A stretch of 64,000 nucleotides of DNA from NCBI GenBank assembly GCA_965219685.1, contig CBDCOH010000002.1, forward strand, positions 3,360,001-3,424,000. The letters are read 5' to 3'. A program made the position numbers and the translations under genes. This document shows positions 18,316 to 24,695 of the stretch, in pieces (position 1 is the stretch's first letter; each line of letters starts with the position of its first letter). The stretch is from Candidatus Spongiisociaceae bacterium. Its GTDB lineage: Bacteria > Actinomycetota > Acidimicrobiia > Spongiisociales > Spongiisociaceae. The notes beneath the pieces were generated by a model. The model saw only the letters and a program-made list of their open reading frames with translations, searched no databases and was not told the origin of the DNA.

Positions 18316-18638
18316 CCGCAGAACCCATCGTCTTGAACGAGACCATCCACCAATCCACACGGCTGCGGATAATGTCCATGCTGGTCTCCCAGCCTGAGAC
18401 CGACCGGCTCACCTACGGGTTCATCCAGAAGACGCTGCATCTCACGGGTGGGAACCTGACAACCCATCTGCGGAAACTCGAGAGCGCAGGCTACCTGGTC
18501 ACCGCCAAGGAGTTCCTCGACTCCAAGCCTCGCACATGGGTCAGGGCGACACCGGAGGGCCGCCGAGCGTTCGCCGAGCATCTTGCCAACCTGGACAAGG
18601 CCCTCAACCTCCGGCGGGCACTGGCGGGTGACCGGTAA
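18312..18638 (+). CDS. Winged-helix (MarR-like/HTH_34) transcriptional regulator
   Basis: IHQSTRLRIM, LTGGNLTTHLRKLESAGY, KPRTW...T..GRRAF; GTGA overlap. Confidence 0.88.
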   Translation: MTAEPIVLNETIHQSTRLRIMSMLVSQPETDRLTYGFIQKTLHLTGGNLTTHLRKLESAGYLVTAKEFLDSKPRTWVRATPEGRRAFAEHLANLDKALNLRRALAGDR

Positions 18639-18694
18639 CGGCTTCCAAGACAAAGACGTTGTAGCCGCCGGTGTCCAGCAACGCCGAACCCTGC

Positions 18695-18790
18695 AACTAT
18701 CATAAGAAATGTGTATGGATGCTACAAAATAGATAAATATATCTGAATCCACCTGCGCCGTTCGTCTCCCATCAATATGATTTCGCGAGG
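18695..18790 (+). promoter_or_regulatory. AT-rich promoter region of the ECF operon with a palindrome
   Basis: Markedly AT-rich tract in a GC-rich window; AGATA-AATA-TATCT at 18731-18744. Confidence 0.5.
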
Positions 18791-18813
18791 AGCGCTACGA
18801 GGGAGGGTATCGA

Positions 18814-19416
18814 ATGAGCGCCATCCAAGACGGTCTACGACTCAAGACAGCTTTCACGACAGCAGCCTGGGTCCTGATCCCGGTCGCCATCGGGATCAAC
18901 CTCATCGGAAGGTACTTCGCCCAGACCTTGAACCTGCCGCTGTTCATCGACACGACCGGCACCACGATGGCGGCCTTCCTGGCCGGCCCCTGGGTTGCCG
19001 CAGTCGCCGGGGTGCTCACGAACCTCGTGATCGGGCTCACGCTCGAAGCGACGTCGATTCCATTCGGTATCGTCAACGCGGCTATCGGCATTGTGGCCGG
19101 TGTCATGGCAGCGCATGGATTCCTTCGCTCCACGGGCAAGGTGATCTGGCTGATACTGGCCTTGACCGCTACCACCATCATCACCGCCACGCCCATCGTG
19201 GTGCTCGTTTTCGAAGGCGTCTCCGGGTCAGGCGTCGACGTGGTCACCGGCTTCTTCGTGGCATCCGGGCAAGGAATCGTCGAATCGGTTATCGGTCAGC
19301 AACTGCTCACGACTCCGGGCGACAAGGTGCTCACGGTGCTCCTGTCCTTCATCTTGATAAAGGGAGTTCCGGCACGCTACCGGCCCCCGTTCGGCCGAGA
19401 AGTCGTTCCGTTCTAG
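18814..19416 (+). CDS. ECF transporter S component
   Basis: About 200 aa hydrophobic; LIPVAIGINL, LPLFIDTTGT, AGPW, DKVL; followed by T and A subunits. Confidence 0.88.
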   Translation: MSAIQDGLRLKTAFTTAAWVLIPVAIGINLIGRYFAQTLNLPLFIDTTGTTMAAFLAGPWVAAVAGVLTNLVIGLTLEATSIPFGIVNAAIGIVAGVMAAHGFLRSTGKVIWLILALTATTIITATPIVVLVFEGVSGSGVDVVTGFFVASGQGIVESVIGQQLLTTPGDKVLTVLLSFILIKGVPARYRPPFGREVVPF

Positions 19417-19515
19417 GAAGGTACTGAGGAACCGCCGGCTGGCCCGACGGTCGATGGCAACCCACATGTCAGCGGACGGCGGGCCACCGGCATTCCTTGT
19501 TTCTCAGCACCCTTC
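19417..19515 (+). other. Long intergenic RNA hairpin after the S-component gene
   Basis: GCCGG-C-TGGCCCG pairs with CGGGCCA-CCGGC; outer GAAG/GTACTGAG pairs with CTCAGCAC/CTTC. Confidence 0.6.
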
Positions 19516-19705
19516 TGACCGGCTAGTGGTCACCCTGTGAAGCAGCGGCACGGAGTGCACGGCGACGGCTCTCCGGGACAGACCCGCCTGTGAAGGCGTG
19601 CGGGGAACGGAACGTCGAGGCAGCGGAACGCAGCGCTGGGCTTCGCCGGTCGGCAGCACGGGCCGGTCCGCCTGGCGGGCAGACCACCCGAACCACGACG
19701 CGGTA

Positions 19706-20497
19706 GTGGAAGCCGACACGACCGCTTGGTCCCCGGCGCGATTAGCCGCGCTGTACGAGGTCGGGAGCACCTGGCTCCACCGGGTGCATCCCCTGACCAA
19801 GCTGGCCGCAGTGCTTCCACTATCGGTTGCGGGATTCGCCGGCGACACGGTTCGGGTTCCCGCAGTCCTCTTGCTGGCGGCGGCAGTGATCCTCATCGTG
19901 ACCCGTCTGGGTTCGGTCGTGCTGAAATCACTCCGGCTCATCGCACCGATGACATTCGCCCTCTTCGTGATACACGGGGTGGTCCGCCCTTACGATTCGG
20001 AACCTATCGCCAGCTGGGGCCCCATCTCGATCAACGCCGAAGGACTGGCCCTCGCCGGAACCACCGCCGCGCGCCTGGCGGTGTTCGTCGTCGCGGTGAC
20101 CGCCGCGATGGCGACCGTACACCCCAAGGTCTTCGCCACGGCCCTGATCCAGCGAGGTGTCTCGCACAAGCTTGCCTACGCGTATCTAGCCGGGGCAGAA
20201 TTGCTCCCGGAGATGCGGCTCCGGGCTTCCCAGATCCTCGATGCCCAGCAGTCGCGCGGCTTCGACACGAAGGGCAGTTTGCCGCGACGTCTCCGGACCC
20301 TCTTCGCACTGCTAAAGCCCCTGCTGGTCAGTTCCCTGATCGGGGTTGAGATGAGGACCCTGGCCCTCGAATCAAGGGGGTTCGCCCGACCCGGGCGCCG
20401 GACCTCCGCCGTGGAGGTGGAAGATCGGGGGAGGTGGCTCCAGAGGGCGCTCCTGCTGGCTGCGATCCCGCTGGTCGTCCTGGCCATCCTATGGTGA
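19706..20497 (+). CDS. ECF transporter T component
   Basis: WLHRVHPLTKL, AQQSRG, ALESRGF (two xRG coupling motifs). Start inferred. Confidence 0.88.
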   Translation: MEADTTAWSPARLAALYEVGSTWLHRVHPLTKLAAVLPLSVAGFAGDTVRVPAVLLLAAAVILIVTRLGSVVLKSLRLIAPMTFALFVIHGVVRPYDSEPIASWGPISINAEGLALAGTTAARLAVFVVAVTAAMATVHPKVFATALIQRGVSHKLAYAYLAGAELLPEMRLRASQILDAQQSRGFDTKGSLPRRLRTLFALLKPLLVSSLIGVEMRTLALESRGFARPGRRTSAVEVEDRGRWLQRALLLAAIPLVVLAILW

Positions 20498-21399
20498 GCG
20501 GCGCTCGCTCCCCGGACTCCAACGGGTCGGGGACCGCGGCATTTGCGAGGTTCGAGGGGTTCGGCGTCACTTACGCCACCGCTTCCGAGCCCTCGCTGAC
20601 CGGGGTGACCCTCGAGCTCTACAGCGACCGGCTCGCCCTCGTCACCGGGCCCTCCGGGAGCGGAAAGTCCACGCTGGCGCGGATCGTGGCCGGGTTCGTT
20701 CCGAGGCTGCTGCACGGGCAGGTGGAGGGCTCGGCACACGTGCTCGGTCACGACGTGGAATCCGCCGCGCCGCACGCGATCATCGAGTCCATAGGCATGG
20801 TGTTCGACAACCCCTTCGACCAGCTGACCGCCGCCACCAGGACGGTGTTCGACGAGACCGCCTACGCCTTGGAGAACGAGGGACTACCCCCTGCCGAGAT
20901 CGTCATCAGGGTTATGGGGGCCTTGGAGAACGTCGGGCTGGCCGAGATGGCCGGCCACCACCCCCGCCGCCTCTCGGGCGGCCAATCGCAGCGGCTGGCG
21001 ATAGCGTGCGCTCTGGCCCAGCAGAAGCCGATCCTGGTCCTCGACGACCCGACCTCCCAGCTCGATCCCACCGGAACCGCGGAGGTCGTGTCCATGGTCA
21101 AGAAGTTGCGGAGGGAGCACACGACGGTGGTACTGGTAGCCCAGGACCTGAGCCACTGGCTGGCCATCGCCGACCGGCTGATCATCCTGGACGAGGGTCG
21201 TGTGACGGCGGACGGGAACCCTGCTTCCCTCCTCGCCGACCCGGGGCCGCTTGCCGGAAAGGTCCTGATCCCTCGCTACGTCGCTATCTGGACCGAGTTG
21301 AGCAGCCGCGGGATGGAACTGGGTGATCGCGCGCCCCTCGGGACGGAACAGTTGCTGGAGTCACTCCGAGCCTCGGGCGGCGCCGGAGGATCGGAGTGA
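20491..21399 (+). CDS. ECF transporter ATPase A (degenerate Walker B and H-loop)
   Basis: GPSGSGKS, LSGGQ, but LVLDDPT and VAQD. Confidence 0.88.
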   Translation: MVSGARSPDSNGSGTAAFARFEGFGVTYATASEPSLTGVTLELYSDRLALVTGPSGSGKSTLARIVAGFVPRLLHGQVEGSAHVLGHDVESAAPHAIIESIGMVFDNPFDQLTAATRTVFDETAYALENEGLPPAEIVIRVMGALENVGLAEMAGHHPRRLSGGQSQRLAIACALAQQKPILVLDDPTSQLDPTGTAEVVSMVKKLRREHTTVVLVAQDLSHWLAIADRLIILDEGRVTADGNPASLLADPGPLAGKVLIPRYVAIWTELSSRGMELGDRAPLGTEQLLESLRASGGAGGSE

Positions 21400-22202
21400 T
21401 CCGGCTTCGCGATGTCAGCTACACCTACCCGAAGGGTGTCGAGGCGATACGTGGACTGAGCCTCGACGTGTCCGTCGGCGAGATCCTGTTCGTGCTAGGG
21501 CACAACGGCGCCGGAAAGTCGACGATGCTCCGCCTTTTCAACGGTCTACTCAAGCCCACCACCGGTACGGTGACGGTCGACGGCACCGACACGGCGAAGG
21601 TGAGACCCGCCCAACTCGCGCGTAGCGTCGGTCTGGTGTTCCAGAATCCCGACGCCCAGTTGTTCCGTGACCGGGTCTCGGACGAGGTGTCGTTCGGAGC
21701 CGACCATGGCGCCGGAACGGCGGATTCGACGCAACGCTTCGATCAGGCGATGGCTCTTCTCGGACTCGAGTCGGTGGCGGATCGCAACCCCTACGATCTC
21801 TCCCTCTCGTGGCGCAAGCGGGTGGCCATCGCGTCGGTCGTCGCCATGGGCAGCCCGATCTTGGTGCTCGACGAGCCTACGGGCGGCCAGGACGCCGAAG
21901 GAACCCGTGTTCTCACCGACCTCGTCATGGACAGGCGCCGTCACGGTCACGGTTGCGTGGTGGTCACCCACGACGTGGACCTGGCCTTCGACTGTGCCGA
22001 CCGGGTGGTGGTGATGAGAGAAGGCGAGATCCATCTAGAAGGCGACCCGATGACCGTGCTCGGCGATCCGCTCCTGGCGGCGGCCGGTGTCGAACCTTCA
22101 ACGATGCACCGTGTCTCGCAGGGGCTGGGACTGGATCGACCGGTCCGTACAGTGGACGAACTGGAAGAACACCTCAGATCCGCAGGAGGCACAACTCCAT
22201 GA
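21396..22202 (+). CDS. ECF transporter ATPase A'
   Basis: GHNGAGKS, FQNPDAQLF, LSLSW signature, LDEPT, VTHD. Confidence 0.9.
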   Translation: MIRLRDVSYTYPKGVEAIRGLSLDVSVGEILFVLGHNGAGKSTMLRLFNGLLKPTTGTVTVDGTDTAKVRPAQLARSVGLVFQNPDAQLFRDRVSDEVSFGADHGAGTADSTQRFDQAMALLGLESVADRNPYDLSLSWRKRVAIASVVAMGSPILVLDEPTGGQDAEGTRVLTDLVMDRRRHGHGCVVVTHDVDLAFDCADRVVVMREGEIHLEGDPMTVLGDPLLAAAGVEPSTMHRVSQGLGLDRPVRTVDELEEHLRSAGGTTP

Positions 22203-22990
22203 GCTTCGATCCGCTGAGCACCGACAAGCCGCAGCACCATATCCGATGCCTCCCGGGCGATGTGGCCGACAAGGTCCTCCTACCCGGTGACCCCAAGAGA
22301 GCGGAGCGGATAGCAGAGTTGCTCGACGACGCCCGCCACATCGCCACCAATCGCGAGTACGCCACCTACACGGGGACCTATCGAGGCATGCCGGTGTCCG
22401 TGACGTCGACCGGCATCGGTTGCCCTTCTGCGGCCATCGCCATCGAGGAACTCACCAGCGTGGGCGCCAGAACCCTGATCCGCGTCGGAACCAGCGGTTC
22501 GATGACGCCCGACGTGCAACCCGGTGAGGTGATCGTCGGGACGGGGGCCATACGGGAGGAGGGGACCGGGACGTCGTACCTTCCCATCGAATACCCGGCC
22601 GTGGCCGACCTCGACATGACGATCTGCCTGCGGGCCGCAGCCCTGGAACTCGGGCTGCCGGTGCGGTCGGGCGTTCTCCATTCCAAGGACTCGTTCTACT
22701 CGCACCGGACTCCGGACCGGGTGCCGGTGGCGCAGGAGATGCTGGGGAAGCGGGCCGCGTGGAGAGCGGGTGGGGCCCTCGCATCGGAGATGGAGACCTC
22801 CACGCTGTTTATCCTCGGATCCATGCTGCGGTTGAGGACAGGCTCCATATGTATGGTCGCCAGTTCGCATGATGCGGCTACCCGCCTGCCGCCTGCGGAG
22901 GCGGCGGCGCTGGTCGACAAGGTGATATTCGCCGCGCTCGATGCCCTGGTCATGGTCGAGTCACCGGGCAAGGGAGGCAACTCCGGATGA
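22199..22990 (+). CDS. Uridine phosphorylase-like nucleoside phosphorylase
   Basis: QHHI, LLPGDPKRA, STGIGCPS, IRVGTSG, KDSFY, SEMETSTLF; ATGA overlap. Confidence 0.9.
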   Translation: MSFDPLSTDKPQHHIRCLPGDVADKVLLPGDPKRAERIAELLDDARHIATNREYATYTGTYRGMPVSVTSTGIGCPSAAIAIEELTSVGARTLIRVGTSGSMTPDVQPGEVIVGTGAIREEGTGTSYLPIEYPAVADLDMTICLRAAALELGLPVRSGVLHSKDSFYSHRTPDRVPVAQEMLGKRAAWRAGGALASEMETSTLFILGSMLRLRTGSICMVASSHDAATRLPPAEAAALVDKVIFAALDALVMVESPGKGGNSG

Positions 22991-23991
22991 CCACCCGGAT
23001 CGACGTCCACACCCACTTCTACCCCACTTCCTACCTGGCCGCCCTGGAACGACGGAGCGACATCCCGCGCGTCTACCGGGACGGCGCTGTCAGACGGTTC
23101 GTGATCTTCCCGGAGGAGGATGCCGACCCGCGCATAGGTCGCCCCATCGAGGACGGGTGGTGCACCGTCGCGGGGAAGGTCGGCTTCATGGACGAAAAGG
23201 CCATCTCACGCTCCGTCATCTCGCTCGGCAACCCCTGGATGGAGCCGTTCGAGGGTCAGCAGGGGATCGAACTGACACGAGTGGTCAACGACGAGTTAGG
23301 CGCCCTGGAGGAGACGACGGATGGGCGGATGGTGGGTCTCGGAGCCCTCCCCGCAACCAGTGTCGAGGATGTCGTGGCGGAGATCGCGGCCATCGACCGG
23401 CACCCGAGCCTGCGCGGAATCGTGACGGGCCCCCGGATCGCGCAACTCCGGCTGGACGATCCGGAGTTGGAACCGGTCTGGGCGGAACTGGAGTCGCGGG
23501 ACGTCCCCGTGTTGTTGCACCCCCAGGACGGTATCGCCCTCGACCTCCTGGAAGGCTACGGACACGTCCTGCCCGTCGGGGTGGGTTTCCCGATGGAGAC
23601 CACCGCAGTGGTGAGCCGCCTCGTGTTCGGCGGCGTTCTCCACAACCACCCCGATCTCAAGATGATCGTCTCGCACGGTGGGGGGACGCTGTCGGCCCTG
23701 GTAGGGCGGCTCGACGCTGCCTGGCGATCGGACGAGATCGGCCGGTCCCGCCTTCCCGAACCCCCATCCAGGTCGATCGCCCGGCTCTACGTCGACGCCA
23801 TCACCTACGCACCGGGTCCGCTGCACGCATCCATCGCCATGGTCGGTAGCGAACGGGTCATGTTCGGCACCGATCACCCCTTCTCCATCGAGGATGCCGA
23901 AGCAACTGCGGACGCCATGGGTGCGGTCGACGAGATCGCCCGCGAGTCGATCTTCGCAGGCACCGCCTCCGCCCTCTTCCGATTGACCTGA
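22987..23991 (+). CDS. Amidohydrolase_2 decarboxylase, iso-orotate (uracil-5-carboxylate) decarboxylase-like
   Basis: IDVHTHFYP, GRP, SVISLGNPW, LLHP, YGHVLPVGVGFPMETT, SHGGGTL..GR, DAITY, MFGTDHPF match, from recall, the fungal IDCase motif series. Confidence 0.78.
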   Translation: MTTRIDVHTHFYPTSYLAALERRSDIPRVYRDGAVRRFVIFPEEDADPRIGRPIEDGWCTVAGKVGFMDEKAISRSVISLGNPWMEPFEGQQGIELTRVVNDELGALEETTDGRMVGLGALPATSVEDVVAEIAAIDRHPSLRGIVTGPRIAQLRLDDPELEPVWAELESRDVPVLLHPQDGIALDLLEGYGHVLPVGVGFPMETTAVVSRLVFGGVLHNHPDLKMIVSHGGGTLSALVGRLDAAWRSDEIGRSRLPEPPSRSIARLYVDAITYAPGPLHASIAMVGSERVMFGTDHPFSIEDAEATADAMGAVDEIARESIFAGTASALFRLT

Positions 23992-24093: not shown

Positions 24094-24327
24094 ATGATCG
24101 TCAACGTTTACGAGGCCAAGACCCATTTCTCCAAGCTCCTCGACCGTGTTCTGAACGGTGAGGAGATCGTGATAGGTCGGGCGGGGAGGCCCGTCGCCCG
24201 ACTAGTTCCCTTCGTCGCGAAGCGAACTCCAAGGGTGCCGGGCAGGCTGGCCGGCAAGATCGTCATGGCTGAGGACTTCGACGCGACACCCGGCTGGCTG
24301 CTCGACGCTTTCGAGGGCCGGGAGTGA
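24094..24327 (+). CDS. Phd/YefM family antitoxin
   Basis: VNVYEAKTHFSKLL...GEEIVI...GRPVARLVP. Confidence 0.93.
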   Translation: MIVNVYEAKTHFSKLLDRVLNGEEIVIGRAGRPVARLVPFVAKRTPRVPGRLAGKIVMAEDFDATPGWLLDAFEGRE

Positions 24328-24695
24328 ATCTACTGCTGGACACCCACACCGCGTTGTGGTGGTTCAGCAACGAGGGTCTCTTCACAGGAGGGGCGGATGC
24401 CATCGCGGATCCCAACAACCTCGTTTACGTAAGCGTGGCCAGCATCTGGGAGGTCAGCATCAAGCAGACCATCGGCAAACTCGCCATCAGTGATGAGTTC
24501 TACACGTTTGTCTACGAGGACTTCGAGCCTCTTCATATCACCATCTCAGACGCCCGAGCAGCCGGTGCCCTGCCGCGACACCACCGCGATCCGTTCGACA
24601 GGATGCTTGTCGCGCAGGCTCTTGCGCGCGACCTGACGCTGGTGAGTCGGGATCGGGCGTTGAGCCAGTATGGGGTCAAGTTGATGAGAGCCTGA
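24324..24695 (+). CDS. vapC: VapC (PIN domain) toxin
   Basis: LLLDTH, SVASIWEVSIK, HRDPFDRMLVAQA, LVSRD; GTGA overlap. Confidence 0.93.
   Translation: MNLLLDTHTALWWFSNEGLFTGGADAIADPNNLVYVSVASIWEVSIKQTIGKLAISDEFYTFVYEDFEPLHITISDARAAGALPRHHRDPFDRMLVAQALARDLTLVSRDRALSQYGVKLMRA

Follow-up and report, generated by a model that had tools for sequence, protein, structure and literature searches.

Iso-orotate decarboxylase (IDCase, EC 4.1.1.66) has been studied almost solely in fungi, where it completes thymidine salvage and has served as a model for a hypothetical DNA decarboxylase. To our knowledge, conversion of the carboxylated base to uracil has so far been described only in these organisms. 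The present work concerns an operon of six + strand open reading frames (ORFs) at positions 18814–23991 of a 64,000-nucleotide stretch of DNA from a Candidatus Spongiisociaceae bacterium, the whole of which is called here the window. The operon codes for the S, T, A and A' components of an energy-coupling factor (ECF) importer, a uridine-phosphorylase-like protein (UP) and an Amidohydro_2 protein (IDC). We put at about even the chance that it functions in the uptake of a 5-carboxyuracil nucleoside (5-carboxyuridine and/or 5-carboxy-2'-deoxyuridine) and its salvage to uracil. The parts are familiar while the combination and the implied nutrient are new. A literature search over titles and abstract openings, with most subscription journals outside its coverage, retrieved no bacterial IDCase pathway, no ECF nucleoside importer of this S family and no combination of them, which is not proof of absence. 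The initial annotation of the locus, made from the letters and their ORFs, likewise knew of no described ECF-linked pathway of this kind.

The active site of the Cordyceps militaris IDCase, as given in PMC6305744, has His12, His14, His195 and Asp323 as metal ligands, binds the carboxylate through His251, Arg262 and Asp323, and stacks the ring against Phe222, Phe326 and Phe327. Its specificity is attributed there to Arg68, which hydrogen-bonds N1 and C2=O, and to Asn98, which contacts N3-H and a carbonyl. In the Escherichia coli UP, according to PMC5238616, the amide of Gln166 pairs with uracil N3-H and O2 and Arg168 binds O4, a network that is the basis of discrimination between uracil and cytosine. 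Group I (dedicated) ECF transporters have the S and T genes and two ATPase genes (A and A') together in one operon, which is also the arrangement found in the window. The six genes, with the profile matches of their products, are the following:

18814..19416, + strand: ECF S component of a CD3073-like family, predicted nucleoside-binding subunit (NF045596, 106.5 bits, full-length; PF12822, 20.3 bits)
19598..20497, + strand: ECF T component for transmembrane coupling (PF02361 CbiQ, 72.6 bits)
20434..21399, + strand: ECF ATPase A (TIGR04520, 188.6 bits; ABC_tran, 82.3 bits)
21396..22202, + strand: ECF ATPase A' (TIGR04521, 199.4 bits; ABC_tran, 104.8 bits)
22199..22990, + strand: UP-family nucleoside phosphorylase of the Streptococcus pyogenes type with a Ser-His-Arg loop (PNP_UDP_1, 137.9 bits; TIGR01718, 239.7 bits)
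22987..23991, + strand: IDCase-like metal-dependent decarboxylase (Amidohydro_2 PF04909, 98.2 bits; match to Protein Data Bank (PDB) entry 4hjw)

The spacing between S and T is at least 182 nt, and the start candidates of T are 19598 and a GTG at 19706, the latter being the likely one. Inspection of the T/A junction shows an overlap with A beginning either at GTG 20434, preceded by GGGGGAG, or within ATGGTGA at 20491–20497. The A/A' junction is GTGA, and both the A'/phosphorylase and the phosphorylase/amidohydrolase junctions are ATGA. Shine-Dalgarno-like stretches of the GGAGG type are found upstream of the S, A' and phosphorylase starts. The four stop/start overlaps imply that T through IDC would be co-translated. 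ORFs, domains and junctions agree with the initial annotation, which had described the six genes in a row with the last five overlapping, and the motifs that it quoted (HTHFYPTSY, GRP, SVISLGNPW, YGHVLPVGVGFPMETT, HGGGTLSALVGR, DAITY, MFGTDHPF and KDSFYSHRTP) are all present in the translations.

A PDB search with the amidohydrolase has fungal uracil-5-carboxylate decarboxylases as its top five matches (4hjw: E 7.5e-50, 173 bits), which bears out the likeness to fungal IDCase stated in the initial annotation. Scores obtained with the single protein are 173 bits for IDCase, 111 for ACMSD, 74 for LigW and 60 for gamma-resorcylate decarboxylase (gamma-RSD); a profile of 19 bacterial homologues gives 274, 163, 124 and 103 bits, respectively. 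The three lower-scoring enzymes have in common with the window protein the chemistry of metal-dependent non-oxidative decarboxylation and the His/Arg/Asp carboxylate site. The PF04909 TIM-barrel domain spans residues 5–333 of the amidohydrolase (98.2 bits) and no NCBIfam model matches the protein. Public annotation of its family is either generic or "ACMSD", and the names in the protein atlas are generic.

Residues were mapped by counting along the alignment to 4lak, whose numbering recovers His12, His14, Phe222, His251, Arg262 and residue 323; the mapping is therefore sound. Ten of the 11 active-site residues listed in PMC6305744 are identical in the window protein. They comprise the metal ligands H8, H10, H178 and D296, the carboxylate-binding H230 and R241 (His251 and Arg262 in C. 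militaris), the uracil-ring readers R52 (in the GRP motif, equivalent to Arg68) and N82 (in the SLGNPW motif, equivalent to Asn98), and F201 and F299 of the aromatic cage. The third cage residue, Phe327, corresponds to Ser300, and Ser occupies this position throughout the bacterial family (consensus FGTDHPFS; alignment A1). All ten identical residues are invariant in alignment A1, which holds 19 sequences from several phyla and gene contexts. Their conservation is strong sequence-level evidence for a substrate of the 5-carboxyuracil type that would be bound as the free base, and the putative enzyme shows every IDCase feature examined at this level except the third cage Phe.

Fungal IDCases (PDB 4HJW, 4HK5, 4LAK/4LAM) are the best PDB matches of the window protein by a wide margin and belong to the same Amidohydro_2 fold family, with the four metal ligands, the carboxylate His/Arg, the catalytic Asp and the uracil-reading Arg/Asn in common. 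The window protein differs from them in being bacterial, about 40 residues shorter (in loops and at the C-terminus) and in having Ser for Phe327. Its gene is found behind those of a phosphorylase and an ECF importer, whereas the fungal enzyme acts on base coming from intracellular thymine oxidation; no T7H-type oxygenase partner, as in the fungal pathway, was found in the window's genome.

The closest structural relative of the phosphorylase is the S. pyogenes uridine phosphorylase (SpUP, 3qpb; E 7.4e-65), E. coli-type UPs scoring about 145–150 bits. The two proteins have in common the KDxFY loop, a Lys at the position of SpUP Lys162 and the SEME ribose/phosphate motifs. The motifs of the NP-I fold are kept, with S196-E197-M198-E199, K163, R34 and R95 invariant in alignment A2. 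Unlike SpUP, whose base-binding loop reads kdaFYgqheP, the window protein has KDSFYSHRTP and thus lacks the Gln that pairs with uracil N3-H and O2. The loss of this Gln, framed in the initial annotation as a departure from FYGQ/FYPGQ, is better described as replacement of Gly-Gln-His by Ser-His-Arg in an S. pyogenes-type enzyme. Roles of Lys162 and His169 in SpUP were reportedly described by Tran et al. in 2011, and His169 is said to align structurally with E. coli Arg168.

The position of the uracil-pairing Gln is occupied by Gln in 75, Glu in 30 and His in 15 of 120 database homologues. His is present in 15/15 orthologues of the sponge clade (77–92% identity, three of them fragments) and in 0/105 of the other homologues; the Gln-to-His change is real, fixed in the sponge clade and limited to it. 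It is not a general mark of IDCase-linked phosphorylases, UPs adjacent to IDC elsewhere having kept Gln. The residue that follows is Arg in the window and mostly Lys in the nearest outside relatives (49–60% identity), which count 15 Gly-Gln-Lys (GQK), 2 AQK and 1 AQR loops; the S. pyogenes-type loop with His at this position (GQH) is found in 53 homologues. A basic Lys or Arg after the Gln position could, in our reading, reach both O4 and the neighbouring 5-carboxylate. The TIGR01718 score of 239.7 bits is under the curated equivalog cut-off of 280.3 and, because the protein lacks the Gln and falls short of this cut-off, it is filed as a putative UP-family paralogue of altered specificity. Besides this gene the genome carries five of the PNP_UDP_1 family, all without the canonical Gln loop, so that the window phosphorylase is one of several specialised paralogues.

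The S protein matches the full length of the NF045596 model but far under its equivalog cut-off (106.5 against 180 bits). Seven S homologues from other loci match only this model, at 95–148 bits and again all below 180. The protein is accordingly classed, by its profile match, as a relative of the CD3073 family and not as an equivalog. No PDB relative was found by sequence, a full-text literature search for CD3073 gave no relevant paper and the family name states no substrate; the link of the family to nucleosides is one of gene neighbourhood. Relatives of S are rare, with matches at E ≤ 1e-8 in 6/400 other sampled Actinomycetota genomes, in most cases accompanied by their own T, A and A' genes. 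Four of these six adjoin IU_nuc_hydro, PfkB, RbsD or ribose-ABC genes and the other two loci are uninformative. The neighbours are an inosine-uridine nucleoside hydrolase, RbsD, a ribose-type ABC system and a PfkB kinase in L088, a nucleoside hydrolase in L091, PfkB in L092, and LacI with PfkB in L093. In a metagenome scan centred on UP, which yielded 80 loci, an S homologue (31–37% identity) and a T gene stand beside UP in ten. Locus L111 has the order nucleoside hydrolase-GntR-S-A-A'-T-UP-phosphorylase and, further along, another nucleoside hydrolase, and L097 (4387–13175) carries an ECF operon A-A'-S-PNP-UP-T with both phosphorylase genes between S and T. Since the S family is consistently found beside nucleoside-cleaving and ribose-using genes, a nucleoside cargo for the ECF system is well supported and is the part of the initial interpretation, which had proposed nucleoside import, that is supported best.

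Two further observations concern this family. Downstream of the L097 operon come an MFS gene and, after 3 kb, a gene for queuosine salvage (Q_salvage, PF10343), an arrangement that hints at other modified nucleosides as cargo of some members. In the window's own genome but outside the window, a 48-residue fragment with 75–79% identity to S residues 22–69 (G000:C2:3610369-3610512, locus L087) adjoins a gene for an aldehyde dehydrogenase (C2:3608816-3610210) and may be what is left of another transporter copy.

Conservation of the operon was followed in loci fetched with 10-kb flanks around IDC homologues, 16 of Spongiisociaceae type and 51 from outside the family. Note that gene calling in these loci is imperfect and that neighbourhood counts are approximate. 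IDC orthologues (79–91% identity) are present in 7/7 other genomes of the window's genus and in 10/12 genomes of a second genus of the same family, the remaining 41 relatives searched having IDC paralogues of at most 35% identity or none (the unpublished genome G032 is counted here, and no claim depends on it). Of the 16 Spongiisociaceae-type loci, 12 carry the complete block with the gene order S-T-A-A'-UP-IDC. Among the other four, one ends inside A at a contig end, two lie on contigs that begin inside IDC, and the last is locus L016, discussed below. Flanking genes vary between subclades, and recurrence of the six genes in order despite these differing flanks makes the block more than chance. 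Operon conservation, a check named in the initial annotation, is thus found in these 12 loci and once in Nonomuraea.

Outside the family, UP or ECF genes occur near IDC in 3/51 loci (L044, L028 and L048) and in the metagenome contig L094. The Nonomuraea sp. locus L044 codes for homologues of all six proteins (S 63%, T 54%, A 45%, A' 53%, UP 55% and IDC 45% identity) with a GntR gene inserted between UP and IDC and an aldehyde dehydrogenase gene 1.1 kb past IDC. In the Anaerolineaceae locus L028 and the syntenic contig L094, UP adjoins IDC. In Terrimesophilobacter (L048), 6–10 kb separate IDC from an ECF module that has two UP genes, and the same island carries a BMP-type ABC system, PfkB and GntR. 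The pairing of phosphorylase and IDCase put forward in the initial annotation therefore recurs, as adjacency, in two other lineages. Outside the sponge clade, GQK is the loop type of all three UPs that directly adjoin IDC. A GQK-type UP is present in just one of the 80 metagenome loci, which is also the sole one with IDC, the count in the other 79 being zero (several of their contigs are short). An Anaerolineales contig of 17,918 bases is given as the source of both the database GQK protein P0148 and the IDC homologue P0028, which suggests a possible fourth GQK-IDC case. The IDC family is rare (profile A1, E ≤ 1e-60: 1/400 other Actinomycetota and 3/340 other Chloroflexota genomes, the latter with borderline E-values), and genome sampling is for this reason uninformative on the link between GQK-type UPs and IDC. 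A tree of 65 bacterial homologues only (quick search, LG+G4) recovers the sponge clade (15 rows, SH-aLRT 100) as sister, at weak support (87), to a Chloroflexota clade with L028 and L094 among its members. As a separate observation, the Anaerolineaceae genome that carries L028 (G455, 2.5 Mb) has 14 UP-family profile matches, many in tandem (e.g. C1:393086-400025 and C1:243011-247375), a striking expansion of nucleoside phosphorylase paralogues.

The pathway that we propose would have four steps. The dedicated ECF transporter (S, T, A, A') would import a 5-carboxyuracil nucleoside, which the UP-family enzyme would split with phosphate into pentose-1-phosphate and 5-carboxyuracil. The IDCase orthologue would then hold the free base through the metal, Arg52 and Asn82 while Asp296 protonates C5, releasing CO2 and giving uracil. 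Upp, encoded elsewhere in the genome (223 bits, above cut-off), would take uracil to uridine monophosphate (UMP). We infer the identity of the nucleoside, the order of the steps and the role of the Ser-His-Arg loop; as to the order, the contact of Arg68 (R52 in the window) with N1 means that the free base should be the substrate and hence that cleavage should precede decarboxylation. Orotidine-monophosphate decarboxylase is present in the genome and de novo pyrimidine synthesis is probably intact, so that the operon would be for scavenging rather than for relief of an auxotrophy. A search of the genome with TIGR01696 gave no deoB-type phosphopentomutase, and no 2-oxoglutarate-Fe(II) oxygenase (PF03171) was found in this 96.7%-complete genome. 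Lack of a PF03171 match leaves the fungal-style thymine route without an evident counterpart, and an external source of carboxylated base fits better. Nothing in the analysis points to the cytidine-type substrate that the initial annotation had also considered.

Several points weigh against this assignment. No abundant natural source of 5-carboxyuridine or 5-carboxy-2'-deoxyuridine is known to us, and the literature search gave none. The usual arrangement of the S family with this UP subfamily lacks IDC (10 loci), which fits uptake of plain uridine, and 48 of the 51 loci outside Spongiisociaceae have no phosphorylase within about 10 kb of IDC, most IDC homologues being located in other N-heterocycle clusters. 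The link between GQK-type UPs and IDC amounts to three or four cases, of which L028 and L094 are syntenic relatives, and the Gln-to-His change is not common to the other IDC-linked UPs. The Phe327 of the fungal cage is Ser300 in the window protein. In locus L016 (9819–10999) IDC is intact, UP is reduced to its last 59 codons and ECF genes are missing, as the result of either a decayed operon or an assembly join. Finally, the Nonomuraea IDC is placed elsewhere in the tree, on a long branch and not with the sponge clade, which may mean that IDC was linked to ECF and UP on more than one occasion or that this position in the tree is unreliable.

An alternative that we regard as unlikely is that the operon serves general uptake of uridine or pyrimidine nucleosides, with plain uridine or deoxyuridine as cargo and the IDCase as an add-on that feeds 5-carboxyuracil of other source (e.g. 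thymine oxidised chemically or by enzymes) into the uracil pool. It would account for the CD3073-like S genes beside canonical GQH-type UPs without IDC in 10/80 metagenome loci, for those beside nucleoside hydrolase or ribokinase-like genes in 4/6 Actinomycetota genomes, for the family-invariant SEME, Lys163, Arg34 and Arg95 kept by the phosphorylase (A2), and for the fact that most IDC homologues have no neighbouring UP. The ATGA coupling of UP to IDC and their adjacency in three lineages are, however, hard to explain if the released base is uracil. IDC-linked UPs moreover have a distinct loop (GQK or SHR), with IDC absent from the 79 other metagenome UP loci; the five other PNP_UDP_1 genes of the genome are available for ordinary nucleosides, and no T7H-like oxygenase that would make 5-carboxyuracil internally was found there.

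We rate just as low the chance that the cargo is another modified nucleoside. It could be of the 5-hydroxymethyl- or 5-formyl-uracil type (from prey or phage DNA rich in 5-hydroxymethyluracil (5hmU), oxidised by enzymes encoded elsewhere), of the 5-carboxycytosine type, deaminated first, or a sponge or microbial natural product; in the last case the IDCase-like enzyme would decarboxylate a base related, not identical, to 5-carboxyuracil. The change of the base-reading Gln to His in the phosphorylase speaks for such a cargo, Gln166 being described as central to the choice between uracil and cytosine in the E. coli UP (PMC5238616), as does the Ser found for Phe327 in the whole bacterial family. 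The gene contexts of IDC homologues also agree with it: they include SDR, aldehyde dehydrogenase, TenA and NMT1/THI5-type pyrimidine-binding proteins, as well as the aldehyde dehydrogenase gene after IDC in Nonomuraea, and suggest that some pathways make carboxylated pyrimidines from alcohols or aldehydes. Against it, Arg52, Asn82 and the metal and carboxylate ligands are conserved, favouring a 2,4-dioxo ring with a 5-carboxylate, and the operon has no oxidoreductase or deaminase gene. The genome also has no orthologues of the genes found in the two groups of IDC clusters described next, only matches of about 25–43% identity.

Group 1 comprises 11 loci, mostly from freshwater Actinomycetota (among them L029, L031, L033, L045, L047, L049, L070 and L073), with a cluster that extends about 6 kb either side of IDC. 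One side codes for a MocR-type regulator, Amidohydro_1, isochorismatase, PTE-family, SDR and aldehyde dehydrogenase proteins, and the opposite side for an ABC system with an NMT1/THI5-type binding protein, TenA, a further SDR and a luciferase-like monooxygenase. It is a candidate for an undescribed route in which a 5-hydroxymethyl pyrimidine (of thymine/5hmU type or the thiamine pyrimidine HMP) would be oxidised to the 5-carboxylate and then decarboxylated. Group 2 (13 loci, including L035, L036, L040, L042, L057–L060 and L064) codes for a GntR regulator, an FAA-hydrolase-family protein, Amidohydro_1, CN_hydrolase, IDC and a FrsA-like esterase; a BMP (PnrA-like) ABC system and a further Amidohydro_1 are encoded close by. 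Judged by gene content, both groups seem to take up and degrade pyrimidine-like heterocycles, in agreement with the family acting in general as a pyrimidine-5-carboxylate decarboxylase, for which a phosphorylase partner is the exception. Note that the gene cluster of aldehyde dehydrogenases (c4) is broad, at 28% identity or more, and that the aldehyde dehydrogenases found near IDC in different lineages need not be orthologues. A gene adjoining IDC in two lineages is a DEAD-box helicase and was dismissed as coincidence.

It is highly improbable that the gene behind the phosphorylase stands there by accident and codes for an ACMSD-type or aromatic-acid decarboxylase with no relation to nucleosides, as the JGI label of many homologues ("aminocarboxymuconate-semialdehyde decarboxylase") and the second rank of ACMSD structures among the PDB matches might suggest, given that IDCase is ahead of ACMSD by 62 bits with the single protein and by 111 bits with the family profile, that the uracil-specific Arg and Asn are present, that no aromatic or tryptophan catabolic genes are nearby in the window, and that the position next to UP is kept from genus to genus and is met again in other phyla.

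Salvage of a 5-carboxyuracil nucleoside can also be set within a wider scheme, which we hold tentatively and consider rather doubtful as a whole. In this scheme a hitherto unannotated bacterial family of true IDCase orthologues would end several undescribed routes from 5-substituted pyrimidines to uracil, and in sponge-symbiotic Acidimicrobiia and Nonomuraea the enzyme would have been joined to a nucleoside-specific ECF importer and a re-tuned UP paralogue for high-affinity scavenging of 5-carboxyuracil nucleosides. These nucleosides could be end-products of the oxidation of thymidine, 5-hydroxymethyl-deoxyuridine or 5-methylcytidine, set free from nucleic acids of host, prey or phage.

The genome that carries the operon is 4.4 Mb in size and belongs to a sponge-associated bacterium; the G+C content of the window is 62–69%. 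The closest named relatives of this genome, which are metagenome-assembled, carry the labels Candidatus Spongiisocius, Candidatus Spongiisociaceae or Acidimicrobiia, and near-matching DNA is present in runs labelled as coral, sponge and marine metagenomes. Two features directly precede the S gene:

18345..18638, + strand: HTH_34 winged-helix regulator, directly upstream of the operon (PF13601, 82 bits)
18690..18813, + strand: AT-rich leader with a GGAGG ribosome-binding site before the S gene (sequence inspection)

A homologue of the HTH_34 gene is near the operon in 2/16 related loci (L013 and L015), outside the conserved block; it is a possible local regulator. The leader, very AT-rich at 18700–18760, is presumed to be a promoter or operator region, and an inverted repeat, AGATA-N4-TATCT, about 60 nt ahead of the S start may be an operator for this regulator. 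A promoter scan showed no promoter-like site and no sigma-70 consensus in the leader, and a terminator scan gave two terminator-like sites, below the mean of shuffled controls. An upstream riboswitch or other RNA element was rejected, as the sole match of an Rfam scan (CcsR1, 19.3 bits, E 0.39) is far under the gathering score and located elsewhere in the region, with none in the leader.

The upstream flank codes, by Pfam, for an oligopeptide-type ABC system, Amidohydro_3, a SelA-like protein, a membrane protein and the HTH_34 regulator, and the downstream flank for a small antitoxin-like ORF with a PIN-domain protein and for DHDPS-family, Amdase-like and M24/creatinase proteins. None of these flanking genes of the window has an evident pyrimidine link by Pfam, and the six genes therefore form a self-contained unit. 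Immediately after the operon, at 24094–24695, a small ORF beginning ATGATCGTCAAC is followed by the PIN-domain gene (PF01850, 55.8 bits), a pair that looks like a VapBC-type toxin-antitoxin; comparable small pairs (clusters c22 and c23) follow the operon in L013, L014, L015, L018 and L022.

If the salvage of a 5-carboxyuracil nucleoside by this operon is true, carboxylated pyrimidine nucleosides would be real environmental nutrients and a substrate class would be assigned to an orphan ECF S family. The phosphorylase would be a natural variant for 5-substituted nucleosides, useful in biocatalysis. The operon would, in addition, direct attention to other routes by which bacteria handle oxidised pyrimidines, those of the clusters around its decarboxylase homologues, which combine SDR, aldehyde dehydrogenase and TenA genes or BMP and amidohydrolase genes.

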